Source: Escherichia coli (lineage in GTDB: Bacteria; Pseudomonadota; Gammaproteobacteria; Enterobacterales; Enterobacteriaceae). Taken from it: a stretch of DNA of 800 nucleotides. The stretch's first letter is position 1; each line of letters opens with the position of its first letter. Of the stretch, positions 1 through 783 are shown in pieces. Location of the stretch: assembly GCF_003334765.1 (NCBI RefSeq), contig NZ_QOWT01000097.1. The stretch is one strand, 5' to 3'. The notes under the pieces are model-generated. The model ran no database searches and was not told the origin of the DNA. It saw only the letters and a list, made by a program, of their open reading frames with translations. The translations under genes and the position numbers were made by a program.

Positions 1-711
1 AGTATCAATGATCTTATGTAAACTGGAACGATTGAACTTACTGGAATCGGTGACCACGATGATCCGTTCCGCAACTTCGCACATCCGACGGTTTAAACGA
101 GCTTCATCTTCATTATGTGTGCTGACGCCGCGCTCCAGATCGATCGCATCTACACCAAGAAACAGCATATCGAAGTGGTAATTTTGCAGCGATTGCTCAG
201 CCTGATCGCCGTAAAAAGATTGCGACTGACGGCGCAAATGCCCGCCGGTCATCAGCAGCTCAACGCCTTCCGCTTCCAGCAACGCATTAGCCACGTTCAT
301 ACCGTTGGTCATCGCAATTACGTCAGTGTGCTTGCGCATCAGACGAGCAATCTCAAAAGTGGTGGTCCCGGAATCGAGGAGCACCCGATGACCTGGCTGA
401 ATCAACTCAACGGCAGCTTTCGCAACGCTGCGTTTCATCGCGGTGTTCAGTGCGCTTTTGTCTTCCACTGATGGCTCGACTGACGGCGTCGTGCTATCGC
501 AGATCAACGCGCCACCATAGGCACGCACAGCGATCCTCTGCTTTTCCAGAAACGCCAGATCGTTGCGGATCGTCACAGTAGATACGCCATACAATGCCGA
601 CAGATCGTTAACCTGCACACTCCCTTGCTGTCGCAGACGCTGAATGATCTGTTCTCGTCGCTCGCTGGTGCCAGTCACTCGCTTCTCACCTGAAGCGTCG
701 GTATTACTCAT
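1..711 (-). CDS. agaR: DeoR-family transcriptional repressor AgaR of the N-acetylgalactosamine/galactosamine utilisation regulon; 5' end complete (ATG at 711..709), 3' end truncated by the window edge (237 codons visible)
   Basis: Manual translation of the reverse complement from ATG 711..709 gives an uninterrupted frame to position 1: [237 protein letters not shown]... It has an N-terminal DeoR-type helix-turn-helix and a C-terminal sugar-phosphate-binding-type region typical of DeoR/GlpR repressors. The N-terminal sequence matches my recollection of E. coli AgaR; no search was run. A good SD sits 6 nt upstream of the ATG. Confidence 0.9.
538..666 (-). other. agaR: DeoR-type helix-turn-helix DNA-binding domain of AgaR (approx. 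residues 16-58); probable recognition helix around residues 43-52 ([10 protein letters not shown], 556..585)
   Basis: Residue pattern [43 protein letters not shown] is typical of DeoR-family N-terminal HTH domains (established family architecture); boundaries are approximate and inferred by eye, not by profile search. Confidence 0.65.
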
Positions 712-716
712 AGTAA

Positions 717-722
717 GTCCTT
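717..722 (-). promoter_or_regulatory. agaR: Shine-Dalgarno / ribosome-binding site for agaR (AAGGAC on the minus strand)
   Basis: Plus-strand gtcctt at 717..722 is AAGGAC on the coding strand; the AGGA core ends 6 nt upstream of the ATG at 711..709, a canonical spacing. Confidence 0.65.
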
Positions 723-750
723 TCGTAAAACTTTCGTTTCATTTCGTTTT
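721..750. repeat. Three direct TTTCGT(TT) repeats with about 10-11 bp phasing (starts at 721, 732, 742)
   Basis: Seen directly: tttcgt at 721..726, tttcgttt at 732..739, tttcgtttt at 742..750. The spacing of roughly one helical turn places the repeats on one face of the DNA, typical of multimeric repressor operators. Confidence 0.7.
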
Positions 751-751
751 G
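728..751. promoter_or_regulatory. Putative AgaR operator in the agaR leader/promoter region (autoregulatory site)
   Basis: Plus-strand aaactttcgtttcatttcgttttg (728..751) fits at all 24 positions the AgaR binding consensus as I recall it from the literature (WRMMTTTCRTTTYRTTTYNYTTKK). It lies 17-40 bp upstream of the agaR start codon. The consensus is recalled from memory and the match has not been computed against a curated matrix. Confidence 0.5.
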
Positions 752-752
752 C

Positions 753-783
753 CTATTAACGCCTTTCTATTAAGCAAATGCAA
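753..783 (-). promoter_or_regulatory. agaR: Candidate sigma70 promoter for agaR (-35 TTGCAT = plus 778..783; weak -10 candidates TAATAG/TTAATA = plus 753..759)
   Basis: Minus strand reads ...CTTGCATTTGCTTAATAGAAAGGCGTTAATAGGCAAAACGAAATG... TTGCAT is a 5/6 match to the -35 consensus. The -10 candidates 18-19 bp downstream are poor matches to TATAAT, so the assignment is tentative. If correct, the transcription start would fall inside the operator repeats. Confidence 0.25.

Follow-up and report, generated by a model that had tools for sequence, protein, structure and literature searches.

TTTCGT repeats and the known AgaR operator at the agaR promoter of Escherichia coli

To examine the repeats found ahead of agaR, we analysed a stretch of E. 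coli DNA of 800 nucleotides (hereafter the window; positions are counted from its first letter). We conclude that the 24-mer at positions 728–751, with its core at 731–750, is very probably the operator at which AgaR acts on the agaR promoter, and that agaR is negatively autoregulated, probably by a steric mechanism. The assignment rests on the identity of the sequence, the fit of the motif and its regulon-specific occurrence, together with deep conservation and the place of the site with respect to the published transcription start. The binding of AgaR to the agaR promoter and the autoregulation themselves are taken second-hand from the literature. Both the operator and the autoregulation are already known, having been described in 2004. 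An earlier note, drawn up from the letters of the window, had described the repeats as a clear signal that is not novel, and this judgement was sound, the signal being an AgaR operator already documented for this promoter.

The agaR locus and the AgaR motif

The window is 99.5% identical to K-12 MG1655 and 99.8% identical to strain SCU-104, and is carried by 5,319 of the 5,426 complete E. coli genomes. It differs from K-12 at about 4 positions, every one of them inside agaR. The gene in the window is agaR of E. coli, and its product is the DeoR-family repressor of the aga regulon. RefSeq labels it 'aga operon transcriptional regulator AgaR', and the full-length protein scores 465 bits against the NCBIfam AgaR equivalog NF040755 (cut-off 260) and also matches the DeoR-family model PRK09802. 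According to the RefSeq annotation, kbaZ is divergent from agaR and begins 248 bp past the agaR start; positions 712–800 are the first 89 bp of the agaR–kbaZ intergenic region. For E. coli C, a length of 227 amino acids is stated for agaR in PMC3668189, versus 269 for the gene here. A 227-residue AgaR would miss the first 42 residues, which are most of the N-terminal helix-turn-helix region, and the discrepancy is probably an annotation difference. PMC10101011 concerns agaR loss-of-function mutants only and holds no operator data. Elsewhere in the cluster, a known deletion in K-12 has left agaW and agaA truncated and fused (K-12 locus 5747–6671); SCU-104, the strain nearest to the window, has an intact kbaZ-agaVWEF-agaA operon (SCU-104 region 22747–25976).

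The window holds exactly three copies of TTTCGT, always on the plus strand (721–726, 732–737 and 742–747) and with spacings of 11 then 10 bp, against 0.64 copies expected from whole-window shuffles. Dinucleotide-preserving shuffling, repeated 20,000 times, never placed three copies on one strand within 24 bp, whether the whole window or 712–800 alone was shuffled. Tandem Repeats Finder, run at a score of at least 30, reported no array; the repeats here are neither long nor regular enough for that program.

The 24-nt AgaR consensus of Ray & Larson 2004 reportedly reads WRMMTTTCRTTTYRTTTYNYTTKK. A literature search for this string found nothing, and we therefore also tested the site against the rest of the aga regulon. 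The 24-mer at 728–751, AAACTTTCGTTTCATTTCGTTTTG, lies 17–40 nt upstream of the agaR ATG, in the agaR–kbaZ intergenic region, and shows 0 mismatches to the consensus, in line with the earlier claim of a fit at every position. At up to 3 mismatches it is the sole match in the window, with 0.00 expected. The same threshold applied to the 10.6-kb K-12 aga cluster returned 6 matches against 0.04 expected: 3 in the agaR–kbaZ region, 3 upstream of agaS and 0 elsewhere in the cluster. In 40.8 kb around agaR of strain SCU-104, 4 matches were found at up to 2 mismatches (0.00 expected), again confined to the agaR–kbaZ and agaS upstream regions.

We also scanned the window with an AgaR position weight matrix, a check that the earlier note had proposed. 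The matrix was built from six aga sites, all outside the window, and its background was taken from 300 shuffles. The top score in the window fell on 728–751 (29.1 bits), above the largest of the shuffle maxima (20.5 bits; mean 4.5, sd 3.4). The 24-mer register that takes in the ATG-proximal repeat, 717–740, scored 5.0 bits, no more than expected by chance. In Mendoza-Vargas 2009, the printed matches to the AgaR matrix of RegulonDB are 12-mers of the form CTTTCnTTTTnT, and window 731–742, CTTTCGTTTCAT, agrees with this form.

The conserved periodicity of the site is a 5-bp NTTTC unit, equivalent to two 10-bp direct repeats, and not three units of 10.5 bp. The earlier description of three TTTCGT repeats about 10.5 bp apart upstream of agaR was thus correct as to the copies, their place and their 11- and 10-bp spacing, but the period that is conserved is 5 bp and two of the copies, not three, are conserved.

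Promoter architecture and conservation

Mendoza-Vargas 2009 (Table S1) reports an agaR start at −39 from the gene start, obtained by 454 5′-end sequencing (3 reads), lying 1 nt from the RegulonDB agaRp and labelled 'Known sigma 70'. The PATSER sigma-70 −35 call for agaRp in that study is 'ggtgGGCTTGCATttgc', and the agaRp −35 is given as GGCTTGCAT beside the mapped start. A start at about 750 in the window rests on these 3 reads and one database entry; the Kim 2012 supplements, searched for an agaR start, hold no agaR entry. We place a putative −10 at 754–760 from its conservation and the mapped start. It is a weak match, separated from the −35 by a spacer of 17 nt if read as GTTAAT or 18 nt if read as TTAATA, and a simple sigma-70 scan does not call this promoter. 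The scan proposed two other minus-strand promoters further upstream, on the kbaZ side of the intergenic region; a simple scan of the same strand proposed a terminator-like hairpin at 780–794. These calls were treated as consensus noise, since the flank of the hairpin is unconserved. An inverted repeat, GCAAG-N5-CTTGC, underlies the hairpin (780–794); it shares bases with the −35 of agaRp, and its distal arm is unconserved outside Escherichia. A genomic SELEX study of the constitutive promoters of two minor sigma factors (PMC5493296) lists an agaR–kbaZ spacer peak in both of its tables, in the heat-shock and the extracytoplasmic sections.

Table 1. Features of the agaR 5′ end and the agaR–kbaZ intergenic region. 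Positions are those of the window unless marked K-12 (K-12 locus coordinates = window + 3000); signed positions are relative to the agaR transcription start.
Feature	Position	Strand	Remarks
agaR coding sequence, first 237 codons	1..711	−	ATG at 711..709; frame leaves the window at its left end
Shine-Dalgarno AAGGA	718–722	−	About +29 to +33 of the transcript; conserved 96–99% at 718–720 and 722, 88% at 721
ATG-proximal TTTCGT (CTTTCGT at 720–726)	721..726	+	About +25 to +30; lineage-specific
AgaR operator of the agaR promoter, 24-mer	728..751	+	−1 to +23; consensus, matrix, conservation
AgaR operator, core (CTTTC GTTTC ATTTC GTTTT)	731–750	+	+1 to +20
Operator core, conserved block	731–749	−	AAACGAAATGAAACGAAAG on the agaR strand; near-invariant
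agaR transcription start (agaRp)	749..751, about 750	−	From our coordinate conversion, good to about 1 nt
Putative −10 of agaRp, GTTAAT/TTAATA	754..760	−	−10 to −4; TTAATA (754–759) invariant, G760 86% (77 sequences)
AgaR-unit-like element in the promoter spacer	762..771	+	CCTTTCTATT in E. coli, CCTTTCTTTT in most genera; about −12 to −21; near-invariant, AA(A/T)AGAAAGG on the agaR strand
−35-containing block	777–784	−	CTTGCATT on the agaR strand; near-invariant; holds the −35-like TTGCAT at 783–778
−35 of agaRp, TTGCAT	778..783	−	About −33 to −28; 77–100% conserved per position
Further conserved AgaR-like block	K-12 3826–3846		agaR–kbaZ region
CRP-like TGTGA-N6-TCAGA, TGTGAATCAGATCAGA	K-12 3844–3859		Outside the window; conserved across genera
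Further conserved AgaR-like block	K-12 3868–3886		agaR–kbaZ region
Further conserved AgaR-like block, inverted	K-12 3910–3927		agaR–kbaZ region

Relative to this start, the operator core adjoins the −10 and lies inside the stretch that RNA polymerase covers (about −55 to +20), and steric autorepression is therefore the best-supported mechanism. The earlier note had deduced negative autoregulation by occlusion of the gene's own promoter or leader, and this deduction is supported by the site at the mapped start and by the citing literature. Open papers that cite Ray & Larson 2004 state that AgaR binds the agaR, kbaZ and agaS promoters and autoregulates; PMC4694137 likewise describes AgaR 'as an autoregulator' that also represses agaZ and agaS. 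In addition, Table S3 of Guharajan 2021 (PMC8667592) gives CTTTCGTTTCATTTTCGTTT as the AgaR binding sequence, labelled 'from PkbaZ'. This 20-mer is absent from the K-12 locus, where the only similar sequence is window 731–750, CTTTCGTTTCATTTCGTTTT; the two are offset by a one-base shift over the last six positions, a mismatch explained either by a misprint or by the use of a modified site. When the 20-mer was set at +1 in a synthetic promoter, it led to AgaR-dependent repression, which was comparatively weak at this position, the fold-change never falling below about 0.1 (PMC8667592).

The mechanism that we propose is as follows. AgaR would bind the tandem NTTTC direct repeats as two 10-bp units, CTTTCGTTTC and ATTTCGTTTT, that start at the agaR transcription start and reach about +20. 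A further conserved unit in the promoter spacer, at −12 to −21, would probably be occupied as well. Bound AgaR would block RNA polymerase binding, DNA opening or promoter escape; AgaR would thereby repress its own gene, and growth on N-acetylgalactosamine or galactosamine would lift the repression. The 728–751 site would be one of at least 4 AgaR sites in the 248-bp agaR–kbaZ region and may cooperate with the kbaZ-proximal ones.

We analysed the conservation of the region by a protein-guided scan with one genome per species, which yielded 80 loci whose AgaR orthologues are 81–99% identical. The genera sampled include Escherichia, Salmonella, Citrobacter, Klebsiella, Enterobacter and Kluyvera, as well as Raoultella, Yersinia, Serratia, Buttiauxella, Cedecea and Mixta. 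The aligned 89 bp upstream of the ATG gave 77 distinct sequences from about 80 Enterobacterales species. Besides the conserved blocks of Table 1, this alignment revealed two poorly conserved segments, 723–730 and 785–800. Strong constraint acts on the TTTCGT copies at 732 and 742 but not on the one at 721. Within the species, 5,299 of 5,322 E. coli records match segment 700–800 with an identity of 99% or more. When used as a 101-bp query, this segment matched 5,828 places in the 5,322 records (at most 4 per genome; 3 on plasmids), which implies some 500 additional copies of this 5′ end of agaR with its operator; a second matching place in SCU-104 was not found within 20 kb on either side of agaR.

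The copy at 721–726 overlaps the AAGGA Shine-Dalgarno (722..718) by 2 nt, an overlap that the earlier note had rightly pointed out. Among 78 orthologous loci, the full ACGAAAG stands beside the Shine-Dalgarno in E. coli and E. albertii only; 12 loci have ATGAAAG, 9 have nnGAAAG and 55 have the Shine-Dalgarno alone. From these sequences, the ATG-proximal repeat appears essentially Escherichia-specific and would be an auxiliary half-site at most. Its overlap with the ribosome-binding site is a coincidence at the DNA level, CTTTCGT meeting the complement of AAGGA, and no translational control is implied, because AgaR binds DNA, the folding of the leader is ordinary and the repeat is unconserved.

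The element at 762–771, in the promoter spacer, is conserved at 86–100% per position in the 77 sequences and was counted in 71 of 78 loci by a regular-expression tally. It resembles the 10-bp unit CTTTCGTTTY and is a putative AgaR binding unit; this resemblance suggests that AgaR may contact the DNA on both sides of the −10. In the agaR–kbaZ region as a whole, the consensus matches three times with no more than 3 mismatches and once with 4, each time in a conserved block. Upstream of kbaZ, the CRP-like site abuts or overlaps the first of the further AgaR-like blocks (K-12 locus 3826–3846). The intergenic length is 245–252 bp in 75 of the 80 species, and about 40 bp in the middle of the region (window 785–822) are unconserved in sequence despite this near-fixed total length. 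This suggests that the spacing between operator clusters is constrained and, by analogy with other DeoR/GlpR-family repressors, would be compatible with a multi-operator complex of fixed geometry.

Alternative readings of the repeats

The site at 728–751 could serve mainly as a distal auxiliary operator of the divergent kbaZ promoter, in cooperation with the AgaR sites close to kbaZ, for instance if an AgaR oligomer held the DNA in a loop, the autoregulation of agaR being a side effect. We regard this as rather unlikely, although it is compatible with the autoregulatory reading. DeoR/GlpR-family repressors are known for cooperative binding to multiple operators. At least 3 more conserved AgaR-like blocks lie 85–190 bp away in the same intergenic region, whose near-fixed length is as expected if operator spacing matters, and Guharajan 2021 assigns the near-identical 20-mer to PkbaZ. 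However, the site abuts the conserved −10 and starts at the mapped agaR start, which is enough for direct repression, and the literature explicitly names agaR among the bound and autoregulated promoters. Species in which agaR is not divergent from kbaZ were sought among the 80 loci and none was found. Since the two genes are divergent in 80 of 80 species, the synteny test is powerless, and conservation does not tell whether the site acts at the agaR promoter or at that of kbaZ. The one role does not preclude the other.

Binding by another regulator, either a paralogous DeoR-family repressor or a nucleoid protein, in place of AgaR is very improbable. E. coli does have many DeoR-family paralogues, and the weaker profile matches include SrlR, GlpR, YgbI, YciT, UlaR, DeoR and FucR, but the motif is limited to aga regulatory regions in the DNA examined. 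Moreover, the literature credits AgaR with binding these promoters, and the repression obtained with the 20-mer in the synthetic promoter depended on AgaR (PMC8667592). An action at the RNA level, in which the repeats in the 39-nt agaR leader would form a structure or a protein site controlling access to the Shine-Dalgarno, is just as improbable. The core is transcribed and the third repeat overlaps the Shine-Dalgarno, but the folding energy of the leader, −5.3 kcal/mol (z = −0.9), was matched by 38 of 200 shuffles. We rejected this reading as the leader folds no better than shuffles; in addition, the segment from the core to the Shine-Dalgarno, which would have to pair, is unconserved, and AgaR is a DNA-binding helix-turn-helix repressor. 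Finally, the notion that the three TTTCGT copies arose by chance in T-rich DNA, or form an intrinsic bend or an UP-like element devoid of a specific protein partner, draws on the T-rich strand, the blank from Tandem Repeats Finder and the one unconserved copy, but is effectively refuted by the shuffles that never reproduce the cluster, by a core that is near-invariant in about 80 species while its flanks vary, by the recurrence of the motif only in aga regulatory regions of the DNA scanned and, for an UP element, by the wrong place of the site, downstream of the −10.

Comparison with known operators and meaning

Compared with the AgaR operators of the E. coli aga/gam regulon (PR, PZ and PS; Ray & Larson 2004, Mol Microbiol 51:813), the site is the same sequence at the same locus. 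It fits the 24-nt consensus perfectly, agrees with the matrix and shows no difference of substance from the known AgaR operators. It resembles the GlpR/DeoR operators in that the repressors belong to the same family, several operators occur per region and short units lie about 10 bp apart. The GlpR and DeoR operators, however, are generally regarded as palindromes or as tandem 10-bp half-sites of another sequence; the window site is made of direct NTTTC pentamers. Like LexA at lexA and TetR at tetR, the repressor gene has its own operator in the polymerase footprint, here at +1 to +20. As a point of difference, AgaR acting at +1 was reported to repress comparatively weakly, and the natural promoter may use a second unit upstream of the −10.

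The reading made from sequence only had therefore correctly recognised a documented operator and its logic, and there is no new biology in it. Our additions are minor: of the repeats, two are conserved and one is lineage-specific; the unit is 5 bp long; the operator begins at the mapped start; and the spacer contains a candidate further unit. Together with the near-fixed intergenic length, they are useful for the curators of RegulonDB and RegPrecise or for engineers of AgaR-based circuits.

We tentatively raise one further possibility, that the agaR promoter is clamped by AgaR on both sides of the −10, at CCTTTCTTTT (−12 to −21) and at the core, within a fixed-geometry complex that includes the kbaZ-proximal sites. 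This proposal is absent from the accessible literature, and Ray & Larson 2004 may already cover part of it. If true, it would explain why the intergenic region measures about 250 bp in nearly all of the species sampled, and the Escherichia-specific third TTTCGT would be a recent gain that tightens autoregulation.
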